In this document: piece after piece, positions 24,983 to 60,875 of the stretch | Position numbering within the stretch: the stretch's first letter is position 1 | Layout of the letters: each line of letters starts with the position of its first letter | Assembly: GCA_013289395.1 (NCBI GenBank) | Contig: JABCZY010000001.1 | Location: 1 to 60,875 of the forward strand | DNA: 60,875 bases | Direction: 5' to 3' | DNA from: Bacteroidota bacterium | GTDB lineage: Bacteria > Bacteroidota > Bacteroidia > JABEUT01 | Notes under the pieces: generated by a model | What the model was told of the DNA's origin: nothing | Databases searched by the model: none | The model's input: only the letters and a program-made list of their open reading frames with translations | Translations under genes and position numbers: made by a program

Positions 24983-25001
24983 AATGATTCTGTTTTAAAT
25001 T

Positions 25002-27065: not shown

Positions 27066-27085
27066 AATTCAAATATTCTGTATCG

Positions 27086-29490: not shown

Positions 29491-29514
29491 ATTTGTTTTT
29501 TATACAGGCATATA

Positions 29515-29531
29515 ACCAATAACCGTGCCAA
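29515..29531 (-). promoter_or_regulatory. Sigma-54 (-24/-12) promoter candidate upstream of orf122 and the kdp genes
   Basis: The minus strand reads TTGGCACGGTTATTGGT. The -24 box is a perfect TGGCAC, followed by N5 and then TTGG instead of TTGC. The -12 region is about 26 nt from the ATG at 29490. It overlaps the palindrome TGCCAA-N6-TTGGCA (29526-29543). A sigma-54-dependent activator is encoded immediately upstream. Confidence 0.4.
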
Positions 29532-29688
29532 TTACTTTTGGCAGTAAATCAACAATCAACTATAATTCTGATTATCAGTTTATTATAGAGCTTATACTGT
29601 AAGTCAGATAGAAATAGACCATGAAATACCCTTCCATTTTGGTAGGGTAATTATCATTTTGGAAGGCATTAAATTTAAGAGGGAACCT

Positions 29689-31466: not shown

Positions 31467-31664
31467 TTACTTCTTCTCCGTCTTTTGAGCAGGTATCTTT
31501 CCGGTACCCTCAACATGGTTGTTAGTCATTTTAGTTTTGGCCGGTGTAGAAGCATGCTTTGTTGTTTCCGTGGCAGTTTTGCTTTTATCATCTTGCTTTT
31601 GCTGAGCAAATGATACACCGGCAAATAATATTAGTGCTGCAAGAGTTAAACTTAAGTTTTTCAT
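31467..31664 (-). CDS. Small secreted Lys/Thr-rich low-complexity peptide (65 aa)
   Basis: Signal peptide MKNLSLTLAALILFAGVSFAQQ followed by a disordered K/T-rich tail. A paralogous layout lies next door. Confidence 0.5.
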   Translation of the reverse strand: MKNLSLTLAALILFAGVSFAQQKQDDKSKTATETTKHASTPAKTKMTNNHVEGTGKIPAQKTEKK

Positions 31665-31697
31665 AATGTTTAAAATTTAAAAGATTGGTGGAAGAAA

Positions 31698-31922
31698 TTA
31701 TTTCTGTTGAGTATTTGTTGGAGGCGGCCCCTTTACTTCATTGGGCTTGGCAACGCCAGTGCCAGGTTTAAAGTTCGGTTTTGAGTTAGGGGCAGGTGCA
31801 ATTTTCTTTTGGGCTATTGGTTTCTGTTCAGTTGCACCCTTGCCCTTATTTACTTGTGCCTGTTGGGCAAAAGTATTTCCAACAAATAGTAGCATTGCAA
31901 AGAGTAGCATTTGGTTTTTCAT
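31698..31922 (-). CDS. Small secreted Lys/Pro-rich low-complexity peptide (74 aa)
   Basis: Signal peptide MKNQMLLFAMLLFVGNTFAQQ followed by a K/P-rich tail. It has the same ...FAQQ cleavage context as 31467..31664. Confidence 0.5.
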   Translation of the reverse strand: MKNQMLLFAMLLFVGNTFAQQAQVNKGKGATEQKPIAQKKIAPAPNSKPNFKPGTGVAKPNEVKGPPPTNTQQK

Positions 31923-32036
31923 GTATTTTAGTTTTGTGGTTAATAAATCAAAACAAATTTAGTAAAATAAGTCTTTCTTTACATTAAAGATTTTGGTTTA
32001 GTACTTTCTTTTACATTAATAATAGGAGCCTTATCA

Positions 32037-33173
32037 CTAATATTGATAGCTATAGAACTTGTTAGAATCACTTATTGGTATTGGATGTTCTTTGAACCAT
32101 TGCATGAAATTATTCCACTTTTCTTTATTAGAATCCCTCCATTTTCTAAAGCCATCAGGATCTCCTTGCATTAGCACCCAATGATTATACGCCTCCATAT
32201 GACCAGCTTTAAGAATATAATTTTGGTAAGAGAACAAAGCATTAGGGTATTTTGTGTCAAGATTCCTACCATAATACAATTCAGCGAATTTTGTTCTTAT
32301 CTTATCCAATGTATTAATATCAAGCACTTTATTCCCTGCTATCGCCATAAGCATTAAAGGATCGTATACACCTATACCAAAAGGCATTTTTACGTGTTTG
32401 GAATTACTATTAGTGATATTAATTGTATTGTCTCTGGTAAAATCAACTTTTGCGCCTTTACTATCAATAGTTATTTCTCGTTTGTAGGTGTCAAATAATA
32501 AGTTACTTATCTCCGGTGTACGTTCAGAATTTCGTTCCAGATTAATAAAGATTTCCCCATATAACATACCCCAAACAGATTCTTGTGAAGAACAATATAA
32601 AATTGAAGCCCAATAATAGTTAGAAGGGAATTCAGGCTCCAGTCTTATTCCCTCTTCGTAGTATGCTAGTGCAGTTGTATATCGCTTTCTGTTAAAATGA
32701 TAATTACCTTCCTCAAGATATAGTTTACCAGATTTGGGAAATTTCCTTAGTCCATTGTCATACGCTTTAAGGCAATTGATTGTATCTCCGAGCTCATCAT
32801 AGGTATTGCCTAACATCTGATAACACTCATCTGTAACATTGTTACTAGTTAAGGTCTTTCTAAACTGCTCTAATGCTAAAGTGTAATCTTCTTTTAAATA
32901 ATATGCATTGCCTAATTCATACAGGTAATCTATATTATTAGAGTCTTTAATACATGCTTCCTTTAGAAGTTCGATTGCACCATTATAATTCCCATTGTTT
33001 TCAAACTTTTCAACTTGATTAATAAATTCGATTGATTGTTTAGTACTTATTTGAGCCAAACAACTATTGTGCCCCAAACATGCTAATAGTATTATTACAA
33101 TTTCATCAACAGGAAATTTAATCACTGCATAGGTAAATCTTCTCACCTTAATCAAGCATTGGGTATCGGTCAC
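32037..33173 (-). CDS. TPR-repeat protein, probably exported or a lipoprotein (start codon uncertain)
   Basis: 378-aa ORF with several TPR-like units (AIELLKEACIKDSNNIDYLYELGNAYYLKEDYTLALEQFRKTL; TALAYYEEGIRLEPEFPSNYYWASILY) and an N-terminal hydrophobic stretch IVIILLACLG. The track start is a GTG overlapping the upstream gene by 26 nt. An alternative GTG one nt after the upstream TAA gives MRRFTYAV... Confidence 0.6.
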   Translation of the reverse strand: MTDTQCLIKVRRFTYAVIKFPVDEIVIILLACLGHNSCLAQISTKQSIEFINQVEKFENNGNYNGAIELLKEACIKDSNNIDYLYELGNAYYLKEDYTLALEQFRKTLTSNNVTDECYQMLGNTYDELGDTINCLKAYDNGLRKFPKSGKLYLEEGNYHFNRKRYTTALAYYEEGIRLEPEFPSNYYWASILYCSSQESVWGMLYGEIFINLERNSERTPEISNLLFDTYKREITIDSKGAKVDFTRDNTINITNSNSKHVKMPFGIGVYDPLMLMAIAGNKVLDINTLDKIRTKFAELYYGRNLDTKYPNALFSYQNYILKAGHMEAYNHWVLMQGDPDGFRKWRDSNKEKWNNFMQWFKEHPIPISDSNKFYSYQY

Positions 33174-33645
33174 TAAATAATATATATAGCTTACGAGTAT
33201 CCCTATAATATTCGACTTCCATTATATAAGCGTGGGGTTTTATTAAAACATGGGCTATAGGTCCATTATCAACCTGTATTCCAATAGATTTTATTTGATT
33301 AATCTTTTGAATTTTCTTTGCATATGCTAATTCAGTAGAACGGTTAGTATTGATAATACAATCTTTATAAATAGTGTCATTCACATAAATTTTAATATTA
33401 TTCGAATCATATGAATTCGAAAAAACTAAAAGTAGTGAATTGGTATCAGGCAGTGACGACCCTTTTTCAGGAATTTTTTTGATCTTATAATTAATATGTA
33501 CACTATATTTAGCACTCTTCTTATCTCCACTCTGCCTGATATGTGAATATCTACCTTTCACACAACAGCACTTACCATAATCACTAATTAATATATTCAT
33601 TAGCATTATTAGAAGTAAAGTCACATATGAGTATTTAGGAGTCAT
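33148..33645 (-). CDS. Hypothetical membrane-anchored or exported protein (165 aa); candidate immunity protein for the upstream metallopeptidase toxin
   Basis: Starts 14 nt after the RHS gene stop and has an N-terminal hydrophobic segment (VTLLLIMLMNILI). The immunity role is positional inference only. Confidence 0.5.
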   Translation of the reverse strand: MTPKYSYVTLLLIMLMNILISDYGKCCCVKGRYSHIRQSGDKKSAKYSVHINYKIKKIPEKGSSLPDTNSLLLVFSNSYDSNNIKIYVNDTIYKDCIINTNRSTELAYAKKIQKINQIKSIGIQVDNGPIAHVLIKPHAYIMEVEYYRDTRKLYILFSDRYPMLD

Positions 33646-33659
33646 TTTTTTGTAAAAAA

Positions 33660-36600
33660 TTATGCTGTAGAATCACCACTTGATGACTGCCCTCCAGATT
33701 CATCCCCTCCACCTGAGAAAGGTGCGCTTCCATCACCACCAGAACTGCCACTATCATTATCGGGAACACCACCTTTCATTGATTCTGCATCAGCATGGTC
33801 TGCCGTTTCCTCATCTCTTTGCCCACCACCCTCGACATTATTACTGCCACCTGAATTATTCTGTGCTTGATCCTGTGTATTTTGCTGAGCAGGCGTCGAT
33901 GTATTTAATTCGACGTTATTTGCTCCTTCATTTTTAATTATAGCATTCTTAATTTCATTTAACTGTCCTATGTTTATATCAGTGCCGCTTCCATATCTTG
34001 ATTGATACATAACATTTGTTTTTGGATCACAATAGACCCCGTTAAAATCATAATTAGCAAATTTTTTCCTTCTTCTCTTGCCATTGACTTTTTCGCCAGG
34101 ATGATTTAATCCAAGAGCATGAAATATTTCATGCACACCTGTTCTTATCATATGGAATATTGGATCTTCGTTACCCATATAAACCATATTCTCCGATCCA
34201 ATAAAATTAAGGACCTGCATGCGATTTACTTTAGTTGCCCCTAATTTATCAGTAGCACCAAGAACGATACCCTTTCCATCTCCATCAGTGCCACTAACAT
34301 CTTCTACAAATTCCAAATAAAAGTCCTTTTTAGGATCAATTTGACTTGCTTGAACAGGTATAATATTCACGTGTGTTATAAAAAGAGTACAGGTTGCAGG
34401 ATCGTATTGGGTTCCATCATCTTCGACCTCGGTTGCAATTGCATTCATAATACCTGTTAGTTGAGCATCAATTCCATTTTTACCACTATTATTCACAACT
34501 TTAATATCTACATTTATACAAACATAAGTAAACCCATCGTCATCAGTATAAGTTGTTTGAGTGGCTTCTTTTCCATCTAAGTCTATAGCAAATATAGGAT
34601 TATTTGATGCAAATTGATAAGTAGACAACTCAGGAAATGACCTTTGAACCCGATCTTCAGAGAAGAATCTACCAACCCTTGGATCGAAAAGTCTATTACC
34701 ATAGTCATATTCATCACCTTCACCATATGTCTCATCATCTTTCTCTTTTCCGTTAAAAGCATATCTATAATTTGAAGAACTGAAATTCCTTCCTGGCTCT
34801 AACATTCCAAAAGGGTAATAGTCATTAGAACTTATAATATCTGGTTCGTATACTAAGGAGTCTTTATTATTCAGCCTTTGAATTTTTCTATCAGACACAA
34901 CTGCAATAACATTTTTTAAATGGTTATAAATTTCATACTGTTTATCGCCAAGATATCTTGCAAAGGAATCAACTTGTGCGATTGGCACAGGGCTAATTAA
35001 TTGAACTGGTGTATTATCAACCCCAATTCTATTAGCACCATAAATATCTCTCTCTTTCAGAATATAGCTTACAGAATTATTTGTCATGGTCTCCATGTAT
35101 ATGGCAATAATATTGCCTCCACCGTCATGTACATAAAAAGTATTTACTGGGTAACCTGAAGTTGGTTTATATTCCTTCCTAATTCTATTAAGGCTTGCGT
35201 CATAATAAAATATTATACTATCGCCGTTATATTTTTTTATTTTCCATGGCTTTCTATAATCATTCCAGATAATTGTATCAATACCACCAGCAGTATCCTT
35301 AGCTAATTCACCCATTGCTGTATATCGATAATTATTTTTCTGATTTATCGTTGCAGAAGCCGAGTTAAATGCACCCTCATCTTTTATATCCAACGGATTA
35401 GGAGTAGATGCAGCATTATTCACATGGTATAGCCTATTCTGAAGAGTCGGACCGGTTCCATTATTGTTATTATAATGGTAATTCAATATGCTCATTATTC
35501 CACCAATGGAATCATTTCTTTGTTGAAATAATATATTTCCATTGGCATCATATGCTAAACTATCAAAGTATAATCCAGAATAAGTCATGCTGCCCCATGT
35601 ATTATTTGTTCCAAGATTTTGATACGCCCTCATTCTGACTATGCGATTCAATTGGTCATAAACATAAGAAGTACCTTGCGGCAATGGATTTATATGAATC
35701 GAAGTATCATTCGAATACTTTACTGGTTTAGAAATTGTCGTAATCATTGCAGAAATATTACCATTAAACAAATTATGGCATGAATTCATTAAGCTGCTTC
35801 CATATTTAACAGATTCAAATCTTGTTTGAATATTATTCCACTTAGTCTTATTGATAGGATCATAATCTCCTGTGAAATAATCAATGCTGTATCCAGCAGC
35901 ATCCTTTGCAAACCCTTTATTTAAATTCGATTCTATTTGTAGGCCATCACTTCCAATATCATTATTTGGTGATAGAATATCGCTATTCATTGCTTTTATC
36001 TGTCCCTGAAGAGTGTATACATAATCCATACCCTGTACTTGCTGATCCCCAACTTCAACTCTTGCTAAATGAAAATGAGGGTAGTAAAAATAATGGGCAT
36101 CGTTGTCCCAAAGAATACTATCCCTTGAGGTTGAGACATTAGTAATTCTGAAATCGGCATCAAATGAATATTTTTGATGATACTGATCTAATTGCCCTGA
36201 TTGATAATCGAGCTCATTAATTTCACCACTTACAAAATCATATTTATAATCTAATCTTTTATATCGTTGGCCAACTATTCCTGCTATTGAATCATCTTGA
36301 ATTTGTGTCGGAACATCTCCAATAATATCATAGCTATAATGGATGGCATTATTAAAAACAAGCGAATCAGTTCTCACAGTATCTCTATAGGTGATTGATG
36401 CAATTCGATTTCTTAAATTTTGTTGTTGCAATACACTTGTTGGAAGTATCTCTTGGACATCATAATAATTATGCATTACCTGAATTCTCAATCCTGTGTT
36501 ATCTTTTATCCAAGTAATATACTTATTTGGTGAAATAACACTTGGATTATAAATACCCATTATTGTATCTCCAAATATTTTATTAAAAAGGTTTGAAGTA

Positions 36601-39600
36601 TCTGCATTCTCGATTTTTTGACCACTTTCATAAATTCTACCATTATTATCATATAATATATAAGTATATCCCTTTTTAATTTCGTTGTTCTGTTTCGTAT
36701 TTTGGCTTAAAACCAATCTACCTAATCTATCATACCAATATAAACTACTAAACTCCCCACCCCTATCATTAATCAACCTTGCGTAAGGGTAATTTTGGGT
36801 ATTGCTTGGCGGAGAAGTTGAATATGATCCACCTACAAAACCATCATAAGGTCCGGTAAAGGCTATGGTATTGTAGTTTACCTGGCCTGTATTCGATACA
36901 ATACTCTTTGCAGTAAGGCCATCTTCAACAGGCATTTCAGCAAAACCAAGCGGGTTAGCTGCTGTAGTATACAGGCTAGGGTCAAGTGACTGTATCTGCC
37001 CCTGTAATATAGTACACTTCATTATTTCTCCGCCCAGGTTAACTGCGCTATCACCCACCACATAGCCTACAATATCATCGCGGAAATAAATATCGTTAAA
37101 TGTAAAGTTGGTATAATTTGTATTGGTGCTTGGTGAGCAATTTATCCAACCCGGTATGGCCAGGTTATAATAGTAAATTGAACCTTGTGCACCGGCAACT
37201 ATAAAACTATTATCTCTGAACACATGTATGGCATGAAGATCTGAGCTGGCCGGCAGTGTATGTGCAAAATTACTAACCGTTAATGTAGCACCCGATATTG
37301 CCAGTTGCAATATGCTTCCACCCGATCCCACAACATATCCACTATTCGGATAATTGGCATGAAACTTTATTTTATACCATATCTGCGTACTACTGCTATT
37401 ATACACATAAGTGCTGCCTGTACCTGCATGGGTAACTATGTTGCTACCGCTTGCTCTTCCTAAAAAGCCTCCGGTTCCTGCAACAATTGAATTACCAATT
37501 CCTGTTGTCCATACTGTTTTATAATCGGGCACACCGTTGCTGTTTATTTCAGGCAATACAGTTTGCCATAATGCGCCTCCGTTGTCGGTTCTGCGTATTA
37601 TGCCGCTATCACCTACCACAAAGCCATGGTTAACATCCATAAAATTCTCAGCCCAGAAACGGCAATCGAATAAGCTATCTACCTTCTTGCCACTTGTAGC
37701 GCCATAGGCCCACATGTTACTGTTATTACCGAATAAGAAAGCGGTACCGAAAGGAGTTGAACAAACCCCATTAAAATTTGTAACGCCTCCGCTAACACCC
37801 TGTACGGCCGATGTTGCACTTGGGCTTGATAAGAACAACTCCGTTCCATTTGCACCCGCAATATATGCTTTTGTTCCGCTATTTGCTATGCCATATAATG
37901 GCGTGTATCCAACCGGCGACAAGATTGTGGTAAAGGTGCTTAGTGCATATCCGCTAAGGCCATAGGTTGCTTTATATATTGCTGATGAATCGCCAACTGC
38001 ATATAAAGCCGTTGCATTACTAATTATTCCGCTGAGGTTTTTAAGCGTCGGCATAGCCAAGGCTTTCATGTTAACTGTACCTGAAGTAACAATTTTGCTA
38101 TAATACAAACGGCCTTTGTCTCCAGTACTAAACACAGTTGTTCCACCGGTAGGGAATACACCAAGGTCGCTGATACGGTTACTATGTACATTGGTACTTA
38201 CATCCTGCCATGTTATGCTTCCGCTGCCTATTTTTCCTTTATACATTTTATTATTTACACTATCTGCCGCACTTACCCTATTAGAACCTGTATATACCAG
38301 GTTTGTAAGTACCGCATTACTTGCCGGTAATGCTGATAATACTGAAGACTCCCCTATTTCTGCAGGAAAGCCTGATGAAGGATATCTTCCTGTTAATATA
38401 TATGTACCAGCTGTAAGAGTTGCTCCAGGTGCATTATAGGTAACAAGTGTATCATTTACGGTTGCAGTATCGGAGCCACCTATATCTGTAAAGTTCGATG
38501 TGGAGGAGCCTGAGTTACTGCTATCAGCAATAGCTAAGGTATTTACAGGGCTTGTTGATTCAGTATTGCTTAAGCGTATCAATGTTCCTTTATCACTTAT
38601 CAGAGCTGGTAACATATAGTTATTTGCTCCGTCAAATATAAAGCCAGCTTTTCGTATTGTTGTCGGGATAGGAAGTTTAGTCCATGTAGCTGTGCTTGCA
38701 CTCGCATTTGTTGTGTAATACACGTTATGCTCTTCCCCGCCAACAATCATACTAATAACACCTTTAGAATTATCCAGCGCATATACTGCTCGCAGATCTT
38801 TGGTGGTAGGGCTGTTAACAGGTATCTCTCCAAAATAAGGATTCTTTAGGCTAAGTGTGTTTACCAGTCGCACTATAAGTCCATTATATCCCACGGCCAC
38901 ACCTTTATACGTTTTTCCTGTTCCCGCAGAGTCCTTATAAAAATTCATAGAATAAAATTCTTCCCCCGGTTTACTCATCAGGTTCCATGTATGCCCACCA
39001 TCGCCGGTAGTATATAACCTGCCATGTTGAGGAGAATTATCTATCAGTGCAATACCTACATTATCATTCACAAAGAAAACATCGCGTATGTCAAATAAGG
39101 TTGCCGGTGGAACCATATACCAGTGCGCACCTTTATCTACGGTATGCATCAGTGTACCTTGTAAACCCACTGCATAACCATGACCCGGTAAGCCGGGAAT
39201 AAAGTGCATTTTATATACAGGCAAACTGTTTACGTTATTTGCTGACTTGGCCCAAGATATAAGGCCATGAGTAGAACTTGGTGTACCAATGTACATCACA
39301 CCGTATCCACTGCTATCACCTACCGCATAGAACAAATCATTCGTTGCATCCCATTTCACACTTGTCAAAGAATCGGTACTGCTGATACTTCCCGTAGGTG
39401 CAACATATGCAGGCACTCCGCCGCTGATATCCATTCCGAATGCAATTCCATTACCTACTATAGCAAGTGTATTGTCAGTTACATCAATATCAGTACCTCT
39501 CAGTTTTTGAGTTACTCCGTTTTGATATAATGGTACAATATCCCAGTTATTACCATTATCCTGGGTCACCATTACAATACCGTTATCGCCCACAACGTAT

Positions 39601-47277: not shown

Positions 47278-50200
47278 TTATTTTTTTTGAATTCCGGTCC
47301 TGCTTTCCTGTATTGTCATTATGCCTCTTTCTGTTTCTTTTTTCACCCGTACCAGCTTACCTTCTTCATCATATTCATAAATGGTAGCATAATTCCTTTC
47401 GTCTAGTACTGCCATCAGTCTTAACGTATTGGGATCATATACATACGTTTTCAAAGTACCATTAAACGGAAATACTCTTATATCATCGAAGTTACATTCC
47501 CCACTTGCGCATGACAATTTAATATCGAAGGTGCTGGCAGTAATAGGCACAGTAAACTGCGTCTCTATTCGCTGCCATCCATCTATTATCCTTCCCTGCG
47601 GACTAAAAGCACCTAGTGTTGTGGTTCCGCTGGACGTAGTGAATACCAGATTAAGTTGAGGGTTCAGATATGTTGTATCTGTAGGAGGAGCATTATTGTC
47701 CTTAGCCCAGATACTAACTAGATAGGTCTTTCCAGGTATCAGGTTCAGACCGCCTAGGCACGTGTCACAACTGGTTGGGGTTTGCACACCAGGAACGATG
47801 ACTGTCACAGGTACGGTAACATCACTGCTGCAGTAATTATTCGCATCTGTTACTGTAACAGTATATGTCAGGGAAGAAACAGGACTGGCTATTACGGTTC
47901 CACCTGTACCGATGGTAATACCATCAGATGGATCCCAGTTAAAATTATATGGTGCTGTGCCATTGCTTCCTGTCGCAGTGAATATAACACTCTGACCGAG
48001 GTTCATACTTGCGGAAGAAGGTGTTACACTAACAGTTGGAACACTGTATGCATTAATAGTGGCAGTAGCTGTTGCACTGCAACCTTCTGCATCGGTCACA
48101 GTAACAGTGTATGTTCCTGAACTTAAGCCGGGTGCAGAGGAATTGGAGCCGCCACTTGGGGACCATGAGTAAGCAAATGGTGAAGTACCTCCACTTACAA
48201 TCGCTTTTGCACTGCCTGTAGCCGGTAAACATGCTGAAATCGATGTTACTGTAACTGTTAATGAAGGTGCGGCGGAAATAGTAACTGGCAGAGATGCAGT
48301 ACATCCGTTAGCATCCGTTACAAGGACGGTATATGAACCAATTCCTAAACCACTTGCGGTAGCATTGGTTCCACCACTTGGGGACCACAGATATGCATAT
48401 GGTGTAACCCCACCATTAACACTAACTGTCGGGCTTCCTGTCACACTGTTACCACAACCGGTTGTCGGACTTGAAGATATTCCGACTACCAGAGAATTAG
48501 GCTGAGTTACAGGTTCCATTGAACTTGTTCCTGTACAACCGGAAGCATCCGTAACCGTAACAGAATAACTTCCTGCACTAAGATTAGTGGCCGTTGAAGT
48601 TGTTTGACCATTGTTCCATAAATATGTATAAGGAGAAGTGCCGCTACTAACTGTTACGGGAATACTGCCATTACTTCCTCCATTGCAACTGACTTCAGTT
48701 ATGGTGCCTACATTAACTACCGGAGAAGATGGAGAAGCGCTTATCGTGAAAGAAGCGGTTCCGACACATCCGTTAACATCTGTTACAGACACAGAATAAC
48801 TGCCTGCTGAAAGATTGGTCGCTACTATATTTGTTTGAACCGGAGAAGTGCTCCATGCATAGGTATATGGCGCTACGCCACCACTTGCCCTTACTGTTGC
48901 GTCTCCCGTAGTGCTGCCACATACCGGTATGGTAGTTACTGATGGTGTTGGCAAAGCCGTAGGCTGAATAGTTACGGACGCAGTTGCGTTACAACCGTTG
49001 GCATCAGTTACTGTAGCTGTATATGTACCCGATGAAAGATTGGTTGCAGTCGCATTTGTCTGGATGGGCGAGGTATTCCAGGAATAGCCATATGGAGAGG
49101 TCCCTCCTGTGGCATTTACTTTTGCACTTCCACCGCCGCCGCCGCCACAGCCTGCATTTGTAATTGAACCTATAGTTGCGGATGGAAGAGGATTCAATGT
49201 TATTACTATCGTTTGGGTATTTATACAACCATTGGAATTTGTTCCGGTTGCTGTATATGTTGTAGTTACAGTTGGGCTAGCAGTTATGGTTGCGCCTGTT
49301 GTAGCACTCAGATTTGTATTAGGAGTCCAGGTGTAGGTACTTGCACCACTAGCAGTTAATGATGCTGAGCTTCCGAAACAAATTGAAGCTGATGAAGGTG
49401 TTATGGTAAGTGTTGGAAGGGGATCTACTGTTACAACAACCGTCTGAGTATTTACACATCCATTTGAATTTGTTCCGGTTGCTGTATATGTTGCAGTTAC
49501 AGTTGGGCTAGCAGTTATGGTTGCGCCTGTTGTAGCACTCAGATTTGTATTAGGTGTCCATGTATAGGTACTTGCACCGCTGGCAGTCAGTGATGCTGAA
49601 CTTCCGGAACAAATTGAAGCCGATGAAGGCGTTATCGTAAGCGTTGGGAGTGGATTTACTGTTACAACAATTGTTTGAGTATTTATACATCCATTTGAAT
49701 TTGTTCCGGTTGCTGTATATGTTGCAGTTACAGTTGGGCTAGCAGTTATAGTTGCGCCTGTTGTAGCACTCAGATTTGTATTAGGGCTCCAGGTATATGT
49801 GCTTGCGCCACTGGCAGTCAGTGATGCTGAACTTCCGGAACAAATTGAAGCCGATGAAGGCGTTATCGTAAGCGTTGGGAGTGGATTTACTGTTACAACA
49901 ATTGTTTGAGTATTTATACATCCATTTGAATTTGTTCCGGTTGCTGTATATGTTGTAGTTACAGTTGGGCTAGCAGTTATGGTTGCGCCTGTTGTTGCAC
50001 TGAGGTTTGTATTAGGGGTCCAGGTATAGGTACTTGCACCACTAGCAGTTAATGATGCTGAACTTCCCGAACAAATTGAAGCCGATGAAGGCGTTATCGT
50101 AAGCGTTGGGAGTGGATTTACCGTCACAACGACTGTCTTAGTATTTATACATCCATTTGAATTTGTTCCCGTTACAGTATAGGTTATTGTAACAGTAGGA

Positions 50201-53808: not shown

Positions 53809-53875
53809 CTATTTCATTTGTTAACTATATCGTATAATCTCATTTTTTTATTATCAACTACTACCATTATTCTTT

Positions 53876-56800
53876 CTAATTACAAACCGGAATCGAAGCA
53901 CTAACTGTACCTCCATCAAATATTATTGTAGCCTGCCCTACACAACCATTCTCATCCGAAGCGTACACCTCAAAACTTCCATTGTAACTCGGGCTATATG
54001 TCGCAGTGTAACTTGAGCCATTATTTGTGAAGGTCACAGCGGAAGCCAAGCCTGAAGTCCTAATACCAGTAAATGAATATGTAGCAGCACCTCCGACAGG
54101 GCTAACCGTTATTGCGGTAGATCCGTCGCTTTGAGGTGTTACAGAATAACATAACTGAAGGCTGCAGCAAGATTGTATAGTTTGATTTGTAGTAGTTAAA
54201 TTCGATCGGCTCACACCCGTAATTTCCGTTGAATAACTACATGATGAATTATTAGCATCAGTTACGGTGATAGTAAGTGGAAGATTTCTAAATAAGGTCG
54301 AATAGTCTATTACAAACTCACCATTACTTGTTAAAGTAGAAGATTGTACACTTGAAGGAATGGTAAAAGTATAATTACCACTTCCACCTGAAGCTGCCAG
54401 AACAAAAACCTGATTTTGTTGTGGCCCGGCATTATAACAAAGTGAAAGGTTACATGGTGGTGGACATTGAGGAATGCCTGAAAAACTAGTAGAGTTTCCA
54501 GTAACAGTAGCCTGAGCAGTACATCCTTTGCTATCAGTTACACTAATGGTGAAAGTATAACTTCCACTGTAATTTGTTTTAATGGCCGGGTAGCCATCGG
54601 AATTAAAATACAGGTTTGCTCCTGTCCATTTATATGTATATGGTGCCGTACCTCCTTCAGGAACTATTTCAAGCACAGACAAGTCAACATTACCTGTTTT
54701 CATTCCGCATAAGGTAAGATTACATGGATTTACAGGGGTACATGTAGTAATCTGCCCACCGATGGTTACAGGTGTGCCGCTGGTTACCAGAAGGCTATGC
54801 CTGCCTGTATGCGCTTGTGTAGGATCAAGAACTATTCCTGTCCGGTTCACATCCATATGATTGTCTGCACAACCGTCAAAACCATAATCTTCAAATCCAT
54901 CAAAACCCATTTCCTGATATTTTGAATTCGCTGCTACCGCAGTGGGTAAGGTTTGATTGTAACCAAACGTGGCCGAAGAATAACGTCCTAAAGCGTCTAC
55001 ACTTTCTATCTCCTGACCATATGGGTTAAAATTCGTAACCGAACTGGTATAGGTCCAATTATTAGGGGTCATTTGCCAGCTTCCACCACTCTCCGAATAG
55101 AATGGGTTATAGGAATTGAATGTTCCGTCGCTCCTTATATTGGTATTATTATCAAAATTGCTTTGATCCCTCGTAGTAAGATAAAGCAAGGAGGTTTTCA
55201 ATCTATAATTCCCTCTTATTCCAAGCACATATGGGTTATCGGTATTATCACCAGACTGGGTAAAGCAATTGCAATATGTACTCCAACTATCCGTATATTC
55301 TCTTGCACTTGCCTGGGTTATCTTCTGGTATGAATTGCTCTGCAAACTATTTATCGGGTTAACAAGAGATGTGATATTCGCCATATCCATGTCCTGCATA
55401 TTCCTTCTACCGGAACGTATCACTTCAAGGTTTGTAAAAGGACCGGTTACTTTAATCCCGCTCTTGTACTCCGCCGTAATATTATTACCATTGACAGCGG
55501 TAACCCATGCGACGATACCAGTCGTTGAGCCAGTAAGTGCAAGCTCATCACCTGGGTAGAACATACTCGATGCATTGGGAATCATTGCAATACCATTTGT
55601 GAATGTTGTAGTAGAATTACTTATACTCACACCTATGTTAGAATATGCGGCACCCATACCACTATAATACCAATATGCAGGATAAGCCATATTGAATATC
55701 GAATCATTAAAATCATTAGTGGTTTTAGTCAATAGTACATTACCGGTTTGCGCATCGTAGGCAAGGTTTTGGGTTTTAACAGTAGAGCCAAGATCTGTTA
55801 CAATTGTACTATCAAGAATGCCGTAACGTTGTATAACCTTGGTATTGACACATGACCTAAATCTTATATACTCGCTTGTATTGGAAGGCAATACCATTGG
55901 GATCGGAATCGGGGGCCCAGCTATATTTATAACATCTAAGTTGATCATTGTCGCAGCAGAAGTATTATCAGTTTCCTCTGAGCGGAAATCATTAACATCA
56001 TCAAAGAACACTCCTATGTTATTCTTCCCCAGGCTACCATCAGGATTAACTACCGTTACATTATTACTCAGTTCAAAACTATTATTGCCTAAGTAAGGTG
56101 TACACTGATAAAAATACTGTACTGAACTTATAGGCGTGGTTTGGCCTTCCTGGTAAACCTCCTGTTTCTTAGGTTTGCCGTTCATATCATTAAGCTCTAT
56201 AGAGTACCCTTGACTTGCTGTCATATAACTCATGGAAGTTACATTAAACAATGAAGAAAGACTTGCAGGGTCTGTGGTTTCAGGTATAGGTTGAAGATCG
56301 GTTTGCTTTGTTATGGTTGGGAAATCTTTTGTTGTATAAAATTCATGTACTACAGAACCTGTGGCATTTCTATGTACATTGGCACGCTGAAGGTTCTTTA
56401 CAGTTACCATACTGTATCCTACTGAAGGAGAAGGGAAGAAAGATTCTCCAAATGGTGTTTCCATATAATATTGGTCATCCGGCACCTGGAGCGCGCTTGA
56501 ACTATAAAAAACCGGGGTATGCAAAGCGTTTTCATCTCCTCCTATCTGTGGTTCATAGCTTGCCACACCAGAAGATGTTACGCCATCCGGCAAGGTATAG
56601 GAATATTGCTGTCCGTAATCAAATGAAGGCTCAACCGATGTCATGGCCTTCCATTGATCATTCATCATGATATCTTTCACCCGTGCACCTCCGCCAAGTT
56701 TTCCGGTGCCGGGACTATTCAGTTTTATCCATGATTTATCTATAACAAAATTATTGCAGAAACCCTGATCATATAAAGAGCCATTCAGGCCCTTATTCAC

Positions 56801-59800
56801 CTGCGTTATTTGGAACACTGCACTTGCTAATGCCCCCAGCACATCCAGCAATTTTGCTTTATCAGTGATCTGTGGTTCATGCCACATAACCCTTGGGGTA
56901 TATAAACGTCCGAATTGCAATGCTGTTTTTATTATTGGTGAAACAAACCCACTGCCATTCCCATCTAGTTGTACTCCGCTAAGCTGAACATAACCATGCG
57001 CACCATCCGAGCAAACTCCCACACTACTCGGTGGAGCATATCCACTTACATATTCATAATATGGAGGAGAGACACTGATCTGCATTAGAAAACGGAAATA
57101 GATATATGGTAGCCCATTAAAATATTTTGCCGGATCTGTTATGTAGTGATTATTGGCGTCCTTTTGAAGTTCAAAAAACAAGTAATAGTTTTGATCAGAC
57201 TGAGATGAACCGGAACCGGATGTTAAAGGGAATGCCTGATATTGTGAGCCAATAGCAACAGAGTTACTAGTTCCTGCTCCGACAACCTTGAACATTTGTG
57301 TTGTCGGTGTATTCTGAACATAGGAATATTGATTGGATTCAAAATCCACATGGATGGAGCCTCCTGAAGGTAATGTGATATCTGTCAGTGTCCATGCGGC
57401 CACATATTGGTCCTCATTCGTTTTATTTTGTTCCACATAAGGATATTCTGCCGGACATAATGCTGTACCAAGAGCCGCTCCTTCACCTGGGTTAGGCTTG
57501 TATGTACCCCAACGGTTATATGCCTTTATATCATAAGGGAAATTATACTGTGGAAAATTATTATAGCAATATGTAAATTTATATGGGCTTAATGCGCCCT
57601 TGAAAGAATTCTGATACGTAAAATATACTTGCTTGAGTGTAAGCTTACCGGTATTTATACCTGTATTATTAATTGCATTGATATTATTGGGAATATTCGG
57701 ACACAGTTCATAATCATATACAAAATGCACTACTTCTATAGGAACAAGTGCCACACTGGAATTCGCCAGATGTGCATTATAGTTGGGTTTGGTATATAAA
57801 CTTATCGAATTCAACACCCGCTGGCTGTGGCTGGTATCCGGATCGATACTTCCATTTCCATCTGTGACCCCTAAGCCGTCCAACCTTGCCTGGGTATTGA
57901 ATACGGCTATATAATTCTTAGTTTCAATCGAGTTCAGGTACCATAATTCTTTCTGACCATATATGTAATTCCCTTTATCATCCGTGGAATCTGATTTTAA
58001 TCCTTCTTCATACGATGCTTTATTCGCTCCCATTGGCACTCTCCAGTTATAATAAGTAGGCCTCTTCTGATAATTGAATTTCGTCCATGTTCCCAGATCG
58101 CCATCACTCGGCCCGCGTATTCCATCAGCGTCAACATAGTCAGCAGAGAGAACAGCCGTCAGTAAATAGCTATGGGCATAGGGAGGTGTCTTGATATCGC
58201 TGTAATAATTATCTATCCCCTTGGGGTTATTTATAGAATTATCGCCAGATAAATAATTCACTAATCCACCGTTGGGGTCCACATGGTCTCCGACATCAGC
58301 ATTCGCATCAATTCCTGTTGCAAATGTGACTTCTTCCTTTTTGATATTGTACGCGGCGATGCCATACACATATCTCTTACCTCCGGTACCTAATGATGTT
58401 ACTTGCCCGATATGATATCCCTTTCCATTGTACAAATTCATTCCTGTGGTATCTTGTAAGCCGAAATTGTGCAATTGATCCCTGGTCAGCATTGATATAC
58501 TTTCATTCCTGATATCGCGATTCAGCCTGTAGTTTTTACCCGATACCTGGAGGCCTGATTCATATGTATTTGTAGCTACTGTATTGAACTGTGATATCTG
58601 GTTAAGCTCCAGGCGCTGTGGATCAAACCCTCCTACTTTCGAAAAAAATGCAGGATCAGAATCAACAGATTTTTCATTAGCCTCCTTAAAATAAACGGGC
58701 TCATAAAGTGGGTTTCCTCCGCCAGTTGAGTTGAAGGACAGATCACCATACGCCGTATTTCCTGCAGACCAATCCCCGCTATAACTTATAACATCCGCAT
58801 TTGACCAATCCACTCCAGCATGAATGATATCTCCTACTGATACCTCCATACCTACTGATTGGGCATTGCTCGTATTTACATTATATGGATCAAATACATG
58901 CCCGATGTCACTGCGGAAAGGCCTATAGCTTCCACTCATACCTTGCCCTGAGACAGAATAAATATCATATGTAAAGTTTGTCAATGGAAGGTCTGGCGTA
59001 TTCTGATTAAATACTCCATCCTTTTCACGGTTAAAATCCATCATTGCACTTGAATTACCCACTCCCGCATCTGCGTGCATGTACCCAAAAGCAGGATTGT
59101 AAATGCTGTTCGTTGCTAAGTATTGAGAAGATTGATATGCTTCAAAATTCACAGTTTCACTGTAACCACTGATCTCGTATCCACCCTTTACACTACCCGT
59201 CACTGAAGAATTTACGAGAGGTAGTGATATTTGCGGTGTGAAAGTTGGCATCATTTTATTAAAGGTTGCTGTTGGTGCAAACTCCGTTTCTGAATGACTT
59301 ATATTTGAACCATCACTGTGTAATGAATAACCAATACTGGCCCCTATTGTCATATTTTCAAGCCCTTGTCTTGAATTAAAAGTCTGGCCGATATGAATAC
59401 CCAGGTTTGTAGAAGCATTATCACCGCTTTTAATTCCAACACTAAGACCTGCATACGGAGTGATATTGACTCCTTCATCACTGCTTGAACTGAGGCCATA
59501 GCCAACCGTTAATTGTCCGCACGAAGGCTTACCAACACTCAGGCTCGGGCAAATTCCAACTTCTGCACCTATTCCCGTATAATTATTGTATTTTACTCCC
59601 AGCGAATATGTAATTCCTGCATTCAGTATTTCAAGACCGAAAAGTTCACCACCTTCGGTAAGACCAGTATTTAAACCATACGTGTCATTCTCCTTCATAT
59701 TAAAATCACGCTCTATGGTATCCCCGTTGAAATCATCTGGAATGCCACGTACTGTCCGTGTTATAGCACCTGCGTTTATGTTCCAGCCTAGTCCAACCCA

Positions 59801-60094
59801 GCTAGCTTCCTGGTCCATGGTTACACCTGACTGGTATGCTAAGTTGATGGGGTATCCGTCCACATTTAATAATGGGATATTATATGAAAAACTGCCAGAG
59901 AATGGGTCGACCATATCAGATGTTCCTACAGGTTCGAAACTATCAACCTCAGGTTGGCTCGGCCCGCCACCAAGCGTAAGCGCATAGTTAGGAGCCCCCA
60001 TCTCAAAAAGCAAAGTAAAGACAATACTAAGGGCAACCGTTTTATTTAACGGTTTTCCAAATTTCTTCTTTATTTTATTAATTGCTCTTCTCAT
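53876..60094 (-). CDS. Giant (2072 aa) exported protein with an SpvB/TcdB(TcB)-type N-terminal domain and C-terminal SprB-like repeats
   Basis: aa 38-125, LTLGGGPSQPEVDSFEPVGTSDMVDPFSGSFSYNIPLLNVDGYPINLAYQSGVTMDQEASWVGLGWNINAGAITRTVRGIPDDF, parallels the SpvB/TcdB N-domain pattern (LPKGGG...G.....PL....G....L.Y.SG.....GLGW......I.R....G.P.Y). The C-terminus carries SprB-like units (GGTAPYTYKWTG...VTDSKGCTAQATVTG). It overlaps the upstream lipoprotein gene by 4 nt. Confidence 0.85.
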   Translation of the reverse strand: MRRAINKIKKKFGKPLNKTVALSIVFTLLFEMGAPNYALTLGGGPSQPEVDSFEPVGTSDMVDPFSGSFSYNIPLLNVDGYPINLAYQSGVTMDQEASWVGLGWNINAGAITRTVRGIPDDFNGDTIERDFNMKENDTYGLNTGLTEGGELFGLEILNAGITYSLGVKYNNYTGIGAEVGICPSLSVGKPSCGQLTVGYGLSSSSDEGVNITPYAGLSVGIKSGDNASTNLGIHIGQTFNSRQGLENMTIGASIGYSLHSDGSNISHSETEFAPTATFNKMMPTFTPQISLPLVNSSVTGSVKGGYEISGYSETVNFEAYQSSQYLATNSIYNPAFGYMHADAGVGNSSAMMDFNREKDGVFNQNTPDLPLTNFTYDIYSVSGQGMSGSYRPFRSDIGHVFDPYNVNTSNAQSVGMEVSVGDIIHAGVDWSNADVISYSGDWSAGNTAYGDLSFNSTGGGNPLYEPVYFKEANEKSVDSDPAFFSKVGGFDPQRLELNQISQFNTVATNTYESGLQVSGKNYRLNRDIRNESISMLTRDQLHNFGLQDTTGMNLYNGKGYHIGQVTSLGTGGKRYVYGIAAYNIKKEEVTFATGIDANADVGDHVDPNGGLVNYLSGDNSINNPKGIDNYYSDIKTPPYAHSYLLTAVLSADYVDADGIRGPSDGDLGTWTKFNYQKRPTYYNWRVPMGANKASYEEGLKSDSTDDKGNYIYGQKELWYLNSIETKNYIAVFNTQARLDGLGVTDGNGSIDPDTSHSQRVLNSISLYTKPNYNAHLANSSVALVPIEVVHFVYDYELCPNIPNNINAINNTGINTGKLTLKQVYFTYQNSFKGALSPYKFTYCYNNFPQYNFPYDIKAYNRWGTYKPNPGEGAALGTALCPAEYPYVEQNKTNEDQYVAAWTLTDITLPSGGSIHVDFESNQYSYVQNTPTTQMFKVVGAGTSNSVAIGSQYQAFPLTSGSGSSQSDQNYYLFFELQKDANNHYITDPAKYFNGLPYIYFRFLMQISVSPPYYEYVSGYAPPSSVGVCSDGAHGYVQLSGVQLDGNGSGFVSPIIKTALQFGRLYTPRVMWHEPQITDKAKLLDVLGALASAVFQITQVNKGLNGSLYDQGFCNNFVIDKSWIKLNSPGTGKLGGGARVKDIMMNDQWKAMTSVEPSFDYGQQYSYTLPDGVTSSGVASYEPQIGGDENALHTPVFYSSSALQVPDDQYYMETPFGESFFPSPSVGYSMVTVKNLQRANVHRNATGSVVHEFYTTKDFPTITKQTDLQPIPETTDPASLSSLFNVTSMSYMTASQGYSIELNDMNGKPKKQEVYQEGQTTPISSVQYFYQCTPYLGNNSFELSNNVTVVNPDGSLGKNNIGVFFDDVNDFRSEETDNTSAATMINLDVINIAGPPIPIPMVLPSNTSEYIRFRSCVNTKVIQRYGILDSTIVTDLGSTVKTQNLAYDAQTGNVLLTKTTNDFNDSIFNMAYPAYWYYSGMGAAYSNIGVSISNSTTTFTNGIAMIPNASSMFYPGDELALTGSTTGIVAWVTAVNGNNITAEYKSGIKVTGPFTNLEVIRSGRRNMQDMDMANITSLVNPINSLQSNSYQKITQASAREYTDSWSTYCNCFTQSGDNTDNPYVLGIRGNYRLKTSLLYLTTRDQSNFDNNTNIRSDGTFNSYNPFYSESGGSWQMTPNNWTYTSSVTNFNPYGQEIESVDALGRYSSATFGYNQTLPTAVAANSKYQEMGFDGFEDYGFDGCADNHMDVNRTGIVLDPTQAHTGRHSLLVTSGTPVTIGGQITTCTPVNPCNLTLCGMKTGNVDLSVLEIVPEGGTAPYTYKWTGANLYFNSDGYPAIKTNYSGSYTFTISVTDSKGCTAQATVTGNSTSFSGIPQCPPPCNLSLCYNAGPQQNQVFVLAASGGSGNYTFTIPSSVQSSTLTSNGEFVIDYSTLFRNLPLTITVTDANNSSCSYSTEITGVSRSNLTTTNQTIQSCCSLQLCYSVTPQSDGSTAITVSPVGGAATYSFTGIRTSGLASAVTFTNNGSSYTATYSPSYNGSFEVYASDENGCVGQATIIFDGGTVSASIPVCN

Positions 60095-60753
60095 ATTGTT
60101 TCAAGCTGAGGTAGCTTCTTTATATCCTTCCCTTCAAAATGAAATTTTATTATTCCTTTGTTAAATTCATTGTCAGAAAATATCAATGTCTTATCTCCTT
60201 CCGCATCTTTACCTTTGGGAAAGGCCAGCAGAAAAACACCATACGGCGCTATATCATACACTCTTTCATAATGAAACAATAAACAAGGCAAGGTATCACC
60301 CGCTTCCACTAATTGAATATCCTTTTGCATTCCGAATGAAAAATAATTGACTCTGTCCTCATACTGAGCATTTTTGGTAAGACCGTATTTAAGGAGTTCA
60401 CCTTGCGGCACCTCTATTTTCAGATTCATATACTGCATTCCACTCAATTCTGCACTTCTTCTTTTTGCAAGCGAATCAGATATTTCATTTTTCTTTTCTT
60501 CTTCACATATCACATAAGGGACTGGCCTGTATTGTACCGAAAAAACTATATCATCTATTTTTTTCTCTTTCTCCATTCCGTTATTCTTATCTTCTATCCA
60601 GCTCACATATTGCGAAGGAGCTAGTTTATCAGGTACAACATTATCCCTTCTTGTCCCCGTACCTTCTTCACTAGTCATAGCTGTACCTCCTCCACACCTT
60701 GTGCATGCACCCGCAAAAAGAATATAGACTATCAATCCACAGATCATTTTCAT
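60091..60753 (-). CDS. Hypothetical lipoprotein (220 aa), translationally coupled to the 2072-aa gene
   Basis: Lipobox ILFAGAC. ATGA overlaps occur at both ends (60091-60094 and 60750-60753). I recognise no family. Confidence 0.65.
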   Translation of the reverse strand: MKMICGLIVYILFAGACTRCGGGTAMTSEEGTGTRRDNVVPDKLAPSQYVSWIEDKNNGMEKEKKIDDIVFSVQYRPVPYVICEEEKKNEISDSLAKRRSAELSGMQYMNLKIEVPQGELLKYGLTKNAQYEDRVNYFSFGMQKDIQLVEAGDTLPCLLFHYERVYDIAPYGVFLLAFPKGKDAEGDKTLIFSDNEFNKGIIKFHFEGKDIKKLPQLETI

Positions 60754-60875
60754 TTCTTCCCTTCGTATCTTTCGTTTACATATTGAGTCACCTGCGCAGT
60801 AATATTTTGCGATTCATCTGCATGCATGATAGAACCGTTTCCACCGTTACCCAATATATATAGGTAATTATTCTC
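60750..60875 (-). CDS. 3' end of a further upstream operon gene (C-terminal 41 aa only; runs off the right edge)
   Basis: My translation, in frame to the window edge, is ENNYLYILGNGGNGSIMHADESQNITAQVTQYVNERYEGKK*. Its TGA overlaps the ATG of the lipoprotein gene. Function unknown. Confidence 0.5.
   Translation of the reverse strand, partial: ENNYLYILGNGGNGSIMHADESQNITAQVTQYVNERYEGKK

Follow-up and report, generated by a model that had tools for sequence, protein, structure and literature searches.

In the solved YD-repeat shells of the Tc (toxin complex) and teneurin type, the shell is interrupted by beta-propeller domains. Genuine plasmid Tc loci carry a TcA-type ('neuraminidase-like') gene directly upstream of TcB. 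For polymorphic toxins in general, a survey of their trafficking published in 2012 lists TcdB/TcaC, PrsW and other routes; a search of that survey for OmpH, LolA and related terms led to nothing on the gene set described below. The outer membrane (OM) route of many Sec-dependent Rhs and other polymorphic toxins of Bacteroidota is not known, and this class is without the signals of the type VI and type IX secretion systems (T6SS and T9SS). LolA3, defined from Fjoh_0605 of Flavobacterium johnsoniae and PGN0947 of Porphyromonas gingivalis, is a LolA paralogue without known function, which has a Sec signal and binds very weakly to a LolB-like protein (PMC11885536, PMC13103446). Here, a stretch of 60,875 nucleotides from a Bacteroidota bacterium (assembly GCA_013289395.1, contig JABCZY010000001.1, positions 1 to 60,875), called the window throughout, was analysed to follow up a preliminary description made from its sequence alone. 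The subject is a minus-strand operon of very large exported proteins that includes an Rhs toxin and a LolA3 family protein. It is a conserved operon of Bacteroidota, present in the window with its distal two-thirds and running on upstream of the window edge in relatives. Judged from their order and its conservation, these genes form one very widespread system of the phylum. That the operon exports, displays and delivers a polymorphic encapsulated Rhs toxin through a dedicated envelope apparatus is a proposal that we hold with evenly balanced confidence.

The operon consists of seven tightly packed genes and the cut 3' end of an eighth. In the order of transcription, the cut gene is followed by genes for a 220-aa lipoprotein (LIP), a 2072-aa protein (A), a 2176-aa protein (REP), a 251-aa LolA3 family protein, a 4285-aa Rhs protein (RHS), a 165-aa protein and a 378-aa protein with tetratricopeptide repeats (TPR). 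The stop codon of the cut gene overlaps the start codon of LIP (ATGA). The intergenic gaps from the 220-aa gene to the 165-aa gene are -4, +67, +1, +3, and +14 nt, and the open reading frames (ORFs) of the TPR and 165-aa proteins overlap by 26 nt if the GTG start of the former is real. The N-termini were judged by eye to be Sec or lipoprotein signals. On both points the preliminary description was accurate, as it had reported at least seven packed co-oriented genes of these sizes, the TPR gene being a probable member, with gaps of -4 to +67 nt and had read Sec or lipoprotein signals on the components. The gene set looks co-transcribed, with Sec-exported giants arranged around an Rhs cocoon toxin. 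A scan with sigma-70 promoter and terminator models, of which the promoter model is unsuited to Bacteroidota, found sites no commoner than in shuffled sequence.

The conservation of the gene set was followed from protein A. The word-index search gave more than 4520 homologues, all unnamed, and the family comprises 5183 clusters at 50% identity (2952 of these at E ≤ 1e-30). Matches were found in at least 579 species-representative genomes, and the cultured carriers include Flavobacterium, Aquimarina, Mesonia, Flavivirga and Pelagihabitans. For synteny, ORFs were called in 84 loci anchored on A, spanning 10 kb on each side of the anchor, and were classified by iterative hidden Markov model searches. 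The order Skp-LIP-A-(REP)-LolA3-RHS is kept in nearly all of them and down to 35% identity. In 61 loci the sequence reaches 9 kb or more past the downstream end of A, and 56 of these carry LolA3; LIP homologues of about 200 aa stand directly upstream of A in 67 of the 84. The same neighbours were recovered from the toxin side. Of the metagenome loci picked by their Rhs shell, 33 have upstream sequence, and in 26 of these the ORF immediately ahead of the Rhs gene is LolA3-like and is mostly preceded by A or by an ORF with the REP tail. The gene order reported in the preliminary description is thus a recurrent one, kept in at least 579 species genomes. The conserved synteny and the fusions of A with the REP tail described below argue that these proteins are not independent adhesins.

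By its domain content RHS is a genuine, classical Rhs polymorphic toxin. When its N-terminal 700 aa were scanned, DUF6443 was found with an E-value of 2.3e-10 (41.3 bits against a cutoff of 27.8), and its first 900 aa have homologues among the 'DUF6443 domain-containing proteins' of Bacteroidota. The homologue listing for these 900 aa consists mostly of truncated entries, and the word-index search under-samples very long proteins; toxin diversity was taken from metagenome loci instead. The propeller region is defined by PSII_BNR (E 9.6e-12), by Ycf48 matches in the PDB and by six Asp-box motifs. Two YD repeats at residues 2155-2215 flank the propellers upstream. With the pattern YDxxG[RNQK][LIVM], seven YD motifs were located. 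Those at 2157 and 2211 stand before the propellers and the others behind them, between 3262 and 3937, the motifs of the shell being at 3262, 3289, 3620, and 3656. None of the YD repeats matched the PF05593 or TIGR01643 profile even at E ≤ 10, and by this measure they are divergent. The Rhs-associated core matched TIGR03696 with an E-value of 9.4e-12 (45.3 bits against a cutoff of 32.5). The tip behind the core carries HEIFHALGLNH, which conforms to the metzincin-type motif HExxHxxGxxH. Its match to matrixin/Peptidase_M10 is sub-threshold (E 0.012) and no PDB sequence matched it; the tip is a putative metzincin-like protease. The preliminary description had assigned YD repeats, an Rhs core and a C-terminal metallopeptidase to this protein. 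The core stands, the repeats stand by pattern but not by PF05593, and the metallopeptidase stands as a motif with its family match below threshold. A whole BC-like (TcB-TcC-like) unit, made of YD repeats, inserted propellers, YD shell, core and toxin, is found in the single RHS chain. Because YD shell repeats occur on both sides of the propellers, RHS needs no separate TcB half.

The toxin is polymorphic across the family. The shell stretch of RHS retrieves 441 relatives in metagenome contigs, which bear the Rhs core. In 99 core-bearing ORFs from 80 related metagenome loci, the tails behind the core nearly all differ, and the few identical ones are repeat assemblies of the same gene. Orphan ORFs made of core and tip stand downstream of the main Rhs gene in at least 11 loci. 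Two metagenome contigs, L098 and L124, have five core-bearing ORFs each, which are mostly short orphan cassettes with different tips. In the window, the GC content falls from about 0.42 to about 0.32 (0.29-0.34) at about 36.7 kb, where the post-propeller shell starts. From the shell and the core, the low-GC block (31900-36700) extends through the toxin to the genes for the 165-aa and TPR proteins. The best relative of the shell is 42% identical, compared with 57-62% for A and the RHS N-terminus. These values suggest that the whole module of shell, toxin and candidate immunity gene was replaced by recombination from a donor of lower GC content. The 165-aa ORF begins 14 nt after the toxin gene; its product had no family match in Pfam or NCBIfam and no homologue in the 84 loci, and its position makes it the likely immunity partner of the RHS toxin. 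The TPR repeats of the 378-aa protein were recognised in a profile scan, and it had no match in the related loci, which rarely reach that far.

Protein A is the signature of the system. No Pfam or NCBIfam family was found above threshold, either in the window protein or, with Pfam, in 26 full-length family members. The members are uniformly 1800-2500 aa in length and all come from Bacteroidota-type records. An almost invariant segment of about 85 residues stands directly after the signal peptide, and this segment (residues 41-125) has a low predicted local distance difference test score (pLDDT, 23-63) in both AlphaFold models. The most conserved stretches of A, residues 41-125 and 340-402 (59720-59974 and 58889-59077), are the ones modelled with very low confidence (pLDDT 22-47). 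Such stretches may fold only against a partner or inside a barrel. The strands that follow the invariant segment are 10-17 residues long with a pLDDT of 70-85 in the two models, and the family-averaged hydropathy alternates by 3-4 units in the strands of residues 157-308. Behind the strands there is a conserved beta-rich body, for which the pLDDT is about 80-88 at residues 580-1050. All Foldseek matches of the N-terminus with a probability of 0.8 or higher are OM barrels, namely KdgM, OmpG, CymA, the autotransporter barrels of NalP, EspP and Hbp, CdiB (E 8.8e-3), and intimin (beta-domain 4e1s, E 0.013). The best E-value was 1.5e-3, with probabilities up to 1.00 and TM-scores of 0.2-0.45. A viral structure library returned nothing significant and the same barrel picture. 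The C-terminal repeats gave weak SprB, Big_9 and PKD-like matches, and they align with the SprB repeats of REP in BLASTP (E 1.5e-7). A is read as an OM protein on account of the barrel-like models, the amphipathic strands across the family and the Skp gene, which the operon always contains. Its N-terminus is probably the OM barrel domain of a large surface protein, the closed barrel being a prediction only.

REP is the variable, adhesin-like member of the operon. Twelve SprB repeats (E 3e-71) and Ig_7 were found in it with Pfam, and its signal reads ...ILVS/C, which by eye is lipobox-like. The YD motif YEYDEEGKL lies at its end, in keeping with the preliminary description of a 2176-aa SprB-repeat protein that ends in YD repeats. 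In relatives, the proteins at this position range from 181 to 2888 aa and have unrelated bodies. Almost all of them end in '...SFVYDP.T.RL.AELDE.NYATFYEYD.EG.LVRVKKETE.G..TIQE.R', and this tail is nearly invariant across REP proteins of every size. In seven A-anchored loci without a separate REP gene, A is 2155-2289 aa long and itself ends in the REP tail. The same fusion is common in Rhs-anchored loci. These gene fusions indicate that REP belongs with A. The tail also aligns weakly with residues 2136-2165 of RHS (E 0.026), and the first YD repeats of RHS, like the REP tail, follow an element resembling a carbohydrate-binding module (CBM), '...DDISF'. A locus of Mesonia oceanica (L054, 15759-20210) has three tandem REP paralogues of 527, 476, and 476 aa with identical tails, which have the appearance of a small set of interchangeable adhesin modules. 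REP fits an exchangeable adhesin that docks through its YD element, with A as the proposed partner, and the conserved tail looks like a mechanism by which receptor-binding modules are swapped in.

The 251-aa protein passes the curated cutoff of the LolA3 family, NCBIfam NF053579 LolA3_fam, with 91.5 bits against 83 (positions 1-227 of 232). In Flavobacterium and Mesonia loci, the genes in this place reach 188-227 bits, and since these cluster-embedded copies score so high, the curated LolA3 family is essentially the gene of this operon. The gene neighbours of LolA3 are absent from the main-text discussion of the two papers that describe it (PMC11885536, PMC13103446), and the supplements of the LolA paper name only Fjoh_0605 of that locus. 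A word-index search from a Flavobacterium LolA3 gave 31 proteins, none of them from F. johnsoniae. Fjoh_0605 itself presumably lies in such an operon. Several of the tags Fjoh_0601-0606 around it are reported from published secretomes of F. johnsoniae. In F. johnsoniae, deletion of lolA3 caused no gliding or amylase-secretion/T9SS phenotype (PMC11885536). LIP has the lipobox LFAGA/C by eye and no match in Pfam or NCBIfam. The idea that LIP is a LolB-like partner of LolA3 was not supported by the comparison of the two in hhalign (probability 1.2%). The cut gene leaves 41 residues in the window, which end in '...ITAQVTQYVNERYEGKK' before the stop. This tail is nearly identical to the C-terminus '...ITAAVTQYINERYEGKK' of the 179-aa gene product at the same position in one related locus (L005). 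The gene at this position in four others (L001-L004) carries OmpH PF03938, and the L001 copy also has a weak Skp match. Through these relatives, the cut gene is read as that of a probable Skp/OmpH periplasmic chaperone. The preliminary description had missed the LolA3 identity, the probable Skp/OmpH nature of the cut gene, the continuation of the operon upstream and the frequent type II secretion-like set.

In the closest relatives, the operon continues upstream with up to three genes before Skp. One of them, two places upstream of A, encodes a protein of about 375-390 aa whose C-terminus resembles a T9SS type-A C-terminal domain (CTD). PF18962 is the top match in 16 of the 38 members of this family of about 375 aa, with a best E-value of 2e-5, all of the matches being sub-threshold. 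Another encodes BAR, a barrel-like protein of 700-917 aa with a beta-rich C-terminal half ending in W or F. A response regulator is sometimes present in this region. Three related loci, L001 (4107-8760), L003 (4714-8759) and L005 (4122-8792), have upstream genes for BAR (844-917 aa) and the protein of about 375-390 aa. The 844-917-aa proteins have a coiled-coil or low-complexity middle, a C-terminal W and no family match. The possibility that BAR is a divergent secretin was rejected (hhalign probability 0.9%). In other lineages, this place is taken by GspF, GspE, the secretin GspD, prepilin peptidase, pilins and PilM/N. Such a set, resembling a type II secretion system (T2SS), lies within 10 kb upstream in 19 of the 55 loci with full flanks. 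These 19 come from several families, and the set occurs both co-oriented with the operon, as is often the case, and divergent from it. BAR is present in 10 of the 55 and never together with the T2SS-like set. In L054 of M. oceanica, a complete T2SS/type IV pilus-like set (230-9185) lies directly upstream and is co-oriented with Skp-LIP-A. L069, L079, L083, L084, L046, L077 and others have the same arrangement, and a pair of conserved linker genes, for products of about 320 and 166 aa, comes with the set. The window contains no type II secretion genes. The type II secretion-like genes of Flavobacteriia may be tied to toxin export.

Table 1. Genes of the operon and regions within their products, listed from the window edge in the direction of transcription.
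Feature	Position in window	Strand	Description
Cut gene, 3' end only	60750-60875	minus	Probable Skp/OmpH family
LIP, 220 aa	60091-60753	minus	Conserved lipoprotein without fold match
A, 2072 aa	53876-60094	minus	Signature protein of the system
A residues 41-125	59720-59974	minus	Near-invariant mature N-terminus with short SpvB-like motif
A residues ~123-440	58775-59728	minus	Predicted beta-meander, about 13 long amphipathic strands, candidate OM beta-barrel
A residues ~1780-2072	53879-54757	minus	Three Cys-bounded immunoglobulin (Ig)/SprB-like repeats
REP, 2176 aa	47278-53808	minus	SprB/Ig repeats, lipobox-like signal
REP C-terminal tail	47281-47481	minus	CBM-like end 'FDDIRVFPF', then two YD repeats '...YVYDPNTLRLMAVLDERNYATIYEYDEEGKLVRVKKETERGIMTIQESR'
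LolA3 family protein, 251 aa	46521-47276	minus	NF053579, Sec signal
RHS, 4285 aa	33660-46517	minus	Sec-exported Rhs/YD polymorphic toxin
RHS residues 330-401	45315-45530	minus	DUF6443, PF20041
RHS residues ~2240-3040	37398-39800	minus	BNR/Ycf48-type beta-propeller region
RHS residues ~3250-3899	34821-36770	minus	YD-repeat shell
RHS residues 3900-3982	34572-34820	minus	Rhs-associated core; sequence '...YDYGNRLFDPRVGRFFSEDRV...NNPIFAIDLDG'
RHS residues 3990-4285	33663-34550	minus	Variable toxin tip, HEIFHALGLNH, low-complexity acidic/Gly tail
165-aa protein	33148-33645	minus	Hydrophobic N-terminus; candidate immunity protein, by position
378-aa exported TPR protein	32037-33173	minus	Membership of the operon uncertain

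The giants were scanned with Pfam and NCBIfam and carry no T9SS CTD, PAAR, VgrG, Hcp or TcA domain. PAAR, VgrG and Hcp domains are also missing from the remaining scanned ORFs of the window, and no TcA-type match was found among the scanned window ORFs. All of these absences had been noted in the preliminary description, together with a T9SS protein at some distance. The latter is a 4932-aa protein (3673-19499, minus strand) with a type-B CTD (TIGR04131, 48.9 bits against a cutoff of 35). A PorP/SprF gene stands directly after its gene, and the two make a classical SprB-type adhesin pair, from which it follows that the organism has a T9SS. The pair lies 14 kb from the operon. Next to the TPR gene there is a gap of about 1 kb with two small ORFs of about 60-70 aa (31470-31930, minus strand), whose products have signal peptides and mature parts rich in Lys, Pro and Thr. 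A DUF7674 gene and a sigma-54 response regulator (29122-31038) separate the toxin operon from a Kdp potassium-uptake operon (20079-28801, minus strand). The Kdp operon encodes KdpA, KdpB, KdpC, an OmpL-like porin and a KdpD sensor that is split into a KdpD/Usp gene and a PAS-histidine kinase gene. The Kdp operon, the DUF7674 gene and the sigma-54 regulator appear unrelated to the toxin operon. At the other end of the window (409-3602, minus strand) are an oligopeptide-type ABC permease and a family-5 solute-binding protein, which are housekeeping genes.

The observed domain content, synteny, gene fusions and toxin polymorphism can be assembled into a working scheme. Sec would take every product across the inner membrane. 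RHS would be the weapon, with a single-chain YD/Rhs shell and its inserted propellers enclosing the toxin. By analogy with the solved Rhs and Tc cocoons, the shell may free the variable, metzincin-like C-terminal toxin by autoproteolysis. A would be an OM anchor or conduit, whose barrel would be inserted into the OM of the producer with the operon's own Skp and whose body and Ig repeats would reach the cell surface. REP would be a receptor-binding module attached to A via the invariant YD tail, and the RHS cocoon would be exported and held on the A scaffold. LolA3 and LIP would serve as dedicated periplasmic or OM assembly factors. Where it is encoded, the type II secretion-like machine probably helps the folded giant across the OM; in the lineage of the window, another barrel-like protein and a T9SS-CTD-like protein stand in that position. 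The target is probably neighbouring bacteria, because the likely immunity protein carries a signal for export or for the membrane and because interbacterial systems typically have orphan cassettes. What we infer in this scheme is the topology, the physical contacts, the route of export and the target. In a wider form, the proposal is that a new OM export and delivery system for Rhs cocoons exists across the phylum, composed of barrel-bearing A, Skp, the lipoprotein, LolA3 and an adhesin with the YD tail, and often coupled to T2SS-like genes. We advance this wider form tentatively, with rather more doubt than belief.

Several points weigh against the scheme, and most of the doubt concerns the role of A and the OM route. 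The AlphaFold models of A are of modest quality, with mean pLDDT values of 65.9 and 56.5. No Foldseek match of A reached E ≤ 1e-3 and the TM-scores are low (0.2-0.45). Neither A nor the 26 full-length members have an Omp85/POTRA, two-partner secretion (TPS), secretin or inverse-autotransporter domain in Pfam, and no component of the operon matches a known translocon family. The 251-aa protein and a profile made from 34 sequences of its family had no match among PDB sequences, so that its putative LolA-type open beta-barrel fold is taken from the family name and the published work. The phenotype of the lolA3 deletion neither supports nor bears on an involvement of LolA3 in toxin export. The window has no type II secretion-like genes, and neither do 36 of the 55 upstream flanks. 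Interaction, surface exposure and toxicity are proposals drawn from sequences and models.

Other explanations of the gene set were weighed against this scheme. The preliminary description had given A 'a clear SpvB/TcdB-type N-domain' and had divided a Tc cocoon between a TcB-like A and a TcC-like RHS. This would make the system a Tc-type toxin without TcA, in which A is the TcB half-cocoon and a TcA substitute performs the delivery. A does contain a real motif of about 45 residues, LxLxYxSG..GxGW....I.R...G.P, that resembles the start of SpvB/TcB. RHS carries the hallmarks of BC, and the Foldseek matches of A include two TcB-TcC chains, 6sue_F and 6l7i_F, at E 0.02-0.03. However, their Foldseek probabilities are 0.04-0.08, and TcB-TcC chains are absent from the top 50 matches of the domain-only model. 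With Pfam SpvB (PF03534) the score was no higher than 12.9 bits (E 0.064; cutoff 22), and this only when the N-terminal 402 aa were cut out and scanned by themselves; residues 64-126 then aligned with profile positions 2-66 of 287. None of the 26 full-length members matched SpvB at E ≤ 1, and TcdB mid-N and mid-C domains were found neither in A nor in these members with Pfam. The profile of the 26 sequences matched no PDB chain at E ≤ 1, although TcB structures are in that library, as their presence among the Foldseek targets shows. In hhalign, 94 N-termini of the A family were compared with five genuine N-domains, from Salmonella SpvB, Serratia SepB, and Yersinia, Bacillus and Streptomyces TcB. 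The probabilities were 0.5-1.8% over 33-46 columns. At this level of comparison, the SpvB-like stretch of A is a short motif and not a domain. Furthermore, the YD repeats of RHS flank its propellers and no second shell half is needed. Where genuine plasmid Tc loci have a TcA-type gene upstream of TcB, there is a lipoprotein of about 200 aa here. The assignment of an SpvB-type domain to A and the split into TcB-like and TcC-like halves are therefore withdrawn, and Foldseek places the N-terminus of A weakly with OM barrels and not with TcB. The preliminary description had itself named, as a refutation, profile searches in which this N-domain proves not to be SpvB-like, and this was their outcome. 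A Tc-type toxin of this kind is very unlikely.

A surface complex that depends on the T9SS could explain the SprB-type repeats of REP and the C-terminus of A, and the type-B CTD protein with PorP/SprF lies 14 kb away. The protein of about 375 aa in relatives ends like a CTD, though sub-threshold with PF18962, and TANFOR toxins were proposed as T9SS cargo on similar grounds of gene neighbourhood (PMC7073777). Against it, no CTD of type A or B was found on A, REP or RHS in scans that did detect the one on the 4932-aa neighbour, and many loci lack the CTD-like protein. We know of no T9SS cargo operon that has its own Skp, LolA3 and lipoprotein among its features. Deletion of lolA3 in F. johnsoniae left the T9SS readouts unaffected (PMC11885536). 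Dependence on the T9SS is unlikely on this evidence. It is also conceivable, if somewhat improbable, that A, REP and RHS are soluble cargo of a T2SS-like machine and assemble outside the cell, with A as an analogue of the TcA-like carrier. All of these proteins carry Sec signals, as T2SS cargo does, the set of GspD/E/F, prepilin peptidase, pilin and PilM/N stands directly upstream in 19 of the 55 loci, and the barrel-like strands of A could be an element that inserts into the membrane of the target cell. However, those genes are absent in cis from two-thirds of the loci and from the window. The Skp of the operon and the amphipathic strands fit insertion into the producer's OM better, and the barrel-like domain keeps its place immediately behind the signal peptide, which recalls inverse autotransporters, although the intimin match is weak. 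Finally, the bodies of REP are typical adhesin repeats, and one may suppose that there is no system, only independent giant adhesins beside an unrelated Rhs toxin. This supposition is strongly disfavoured and scarcely credible, because the order persists down to 35% identity and across at least 579 species genomes, loci sampled through the Rhs gene show the same neighbours, A and REP are found fused, and the genes overlap or abut.

If the dedicated envelope apparatus is upheld, it would be a new mode of trafficking for polymorphic toxins in a dominant phylum of soil, water and gut. The wider proposal of a new system would, if true, give LolA3 its missing function, and it offers a testable job for a protein that two recent papers left without one. 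The parts list, namely A, LIP, LolA3, Skp, the tail-bearing adhesin and the DUF6443-Rhs protein, can be deleted in culturable Flavobacterium, Aquimarina and Mesonia. No description of the cluster was found in the searchable literature, in which subscription journals are scarcely covered, so that an earlier account is possible.

The locus can be compared with the known systems one by one. As in the TcB-TcC cocoons (Photorhabdus TcdB2-TccC3 and Yersinia YenB-YenC2) and teneurin-type shells, there is a YD/Rhs shell with propellers, and as in the Tc cocoon the Rhs core stands beside a variable C-terminal toxin that is exported without T6SS parts. Unlike Tc, RHS is one chain of 4285 aa with an N-terminal extension of about 2100 aa that includes DUF6443, its propellers are of BNR/Ycf48 type, there is no SpvB domain and no TcA gene in the window, and the partners are A, LIP, LolA3, Skp and REP. 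With contact-dependent inhibition (CDI, CdiB/CdiA) and Sec-dependent Rhs/YD toxins such as Bacillus WapA, the locus shares a very large polymorphic toxin that is exported by Sec and has a variable tip, a gene of the size of an immunity gene downstream of it, orphan cassettes in relatives and a partner domain like an OM barrel. It differs from CDI in having no TPS domain, haemagglutinin repeats or Omp85/POTRA partner in Pfam. The domain that resembles a barrel forms the N-terminal part of a protein of 2000 aa, and the toxin is encapsulated by Rhs rather than borne on a filament. Inverse autotransporters (type Ve, intimin/invasin) have the same succession as A of signal peptide, short segment, N-terminal barrel-like domain and C-terminal Ig-like repeats. 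On the other hand, A has no IAT_beta or LysM match in Pfam, about 13 predicted strands as opposed to 12, and a passenger of about 1600 aa with a novel conserved body, and the fold similarity is weak.

The 251-aa protein is like LolA3 (Fjoh_0605, PGN0947) in passing the curated cutoff and in having a Sec signal. LolA3 was treated as an orphan in the published work (PMC11885536, PMC13103446), whereas the present operon, with its Rhs toxin, has it as a fixed member. TANFOR toxins are likewise large, phylum-restricted polymorphic toxins with Sec signals, have neighbourhoods rich in SprB and PKD, and cross the OM by a route that is not known (PMC7073777); the present toxins differ from them by the DUF6443 marker, the Rhs shell and the fixed accessory genes. 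T6SS PAAR-Rhs effectors have an Rhs core, an encapsulated variable toxin, and immunity and orphan cassettes, as here, where the 165-aa gene is the candidate immunity gene, but in RHS a cleavable Sec signal stands in place of PAAR or another T6SS adaptor, and VgrG, Hcp and PAAR were not found in the scanned ORFs of the window. The accessory genes do not match those of Tc, T6SS, T9SS cargo, CDI/two-partner secretion or inverse autotransporters; for each of these, at least one defining feature was not found, and this agrees with the preliminary description, in which the operon could not be mapped onto a described system. The toxin belongs to the Rhs class of polymorphic toxins, and its accessory and trafficking set appears to be new.

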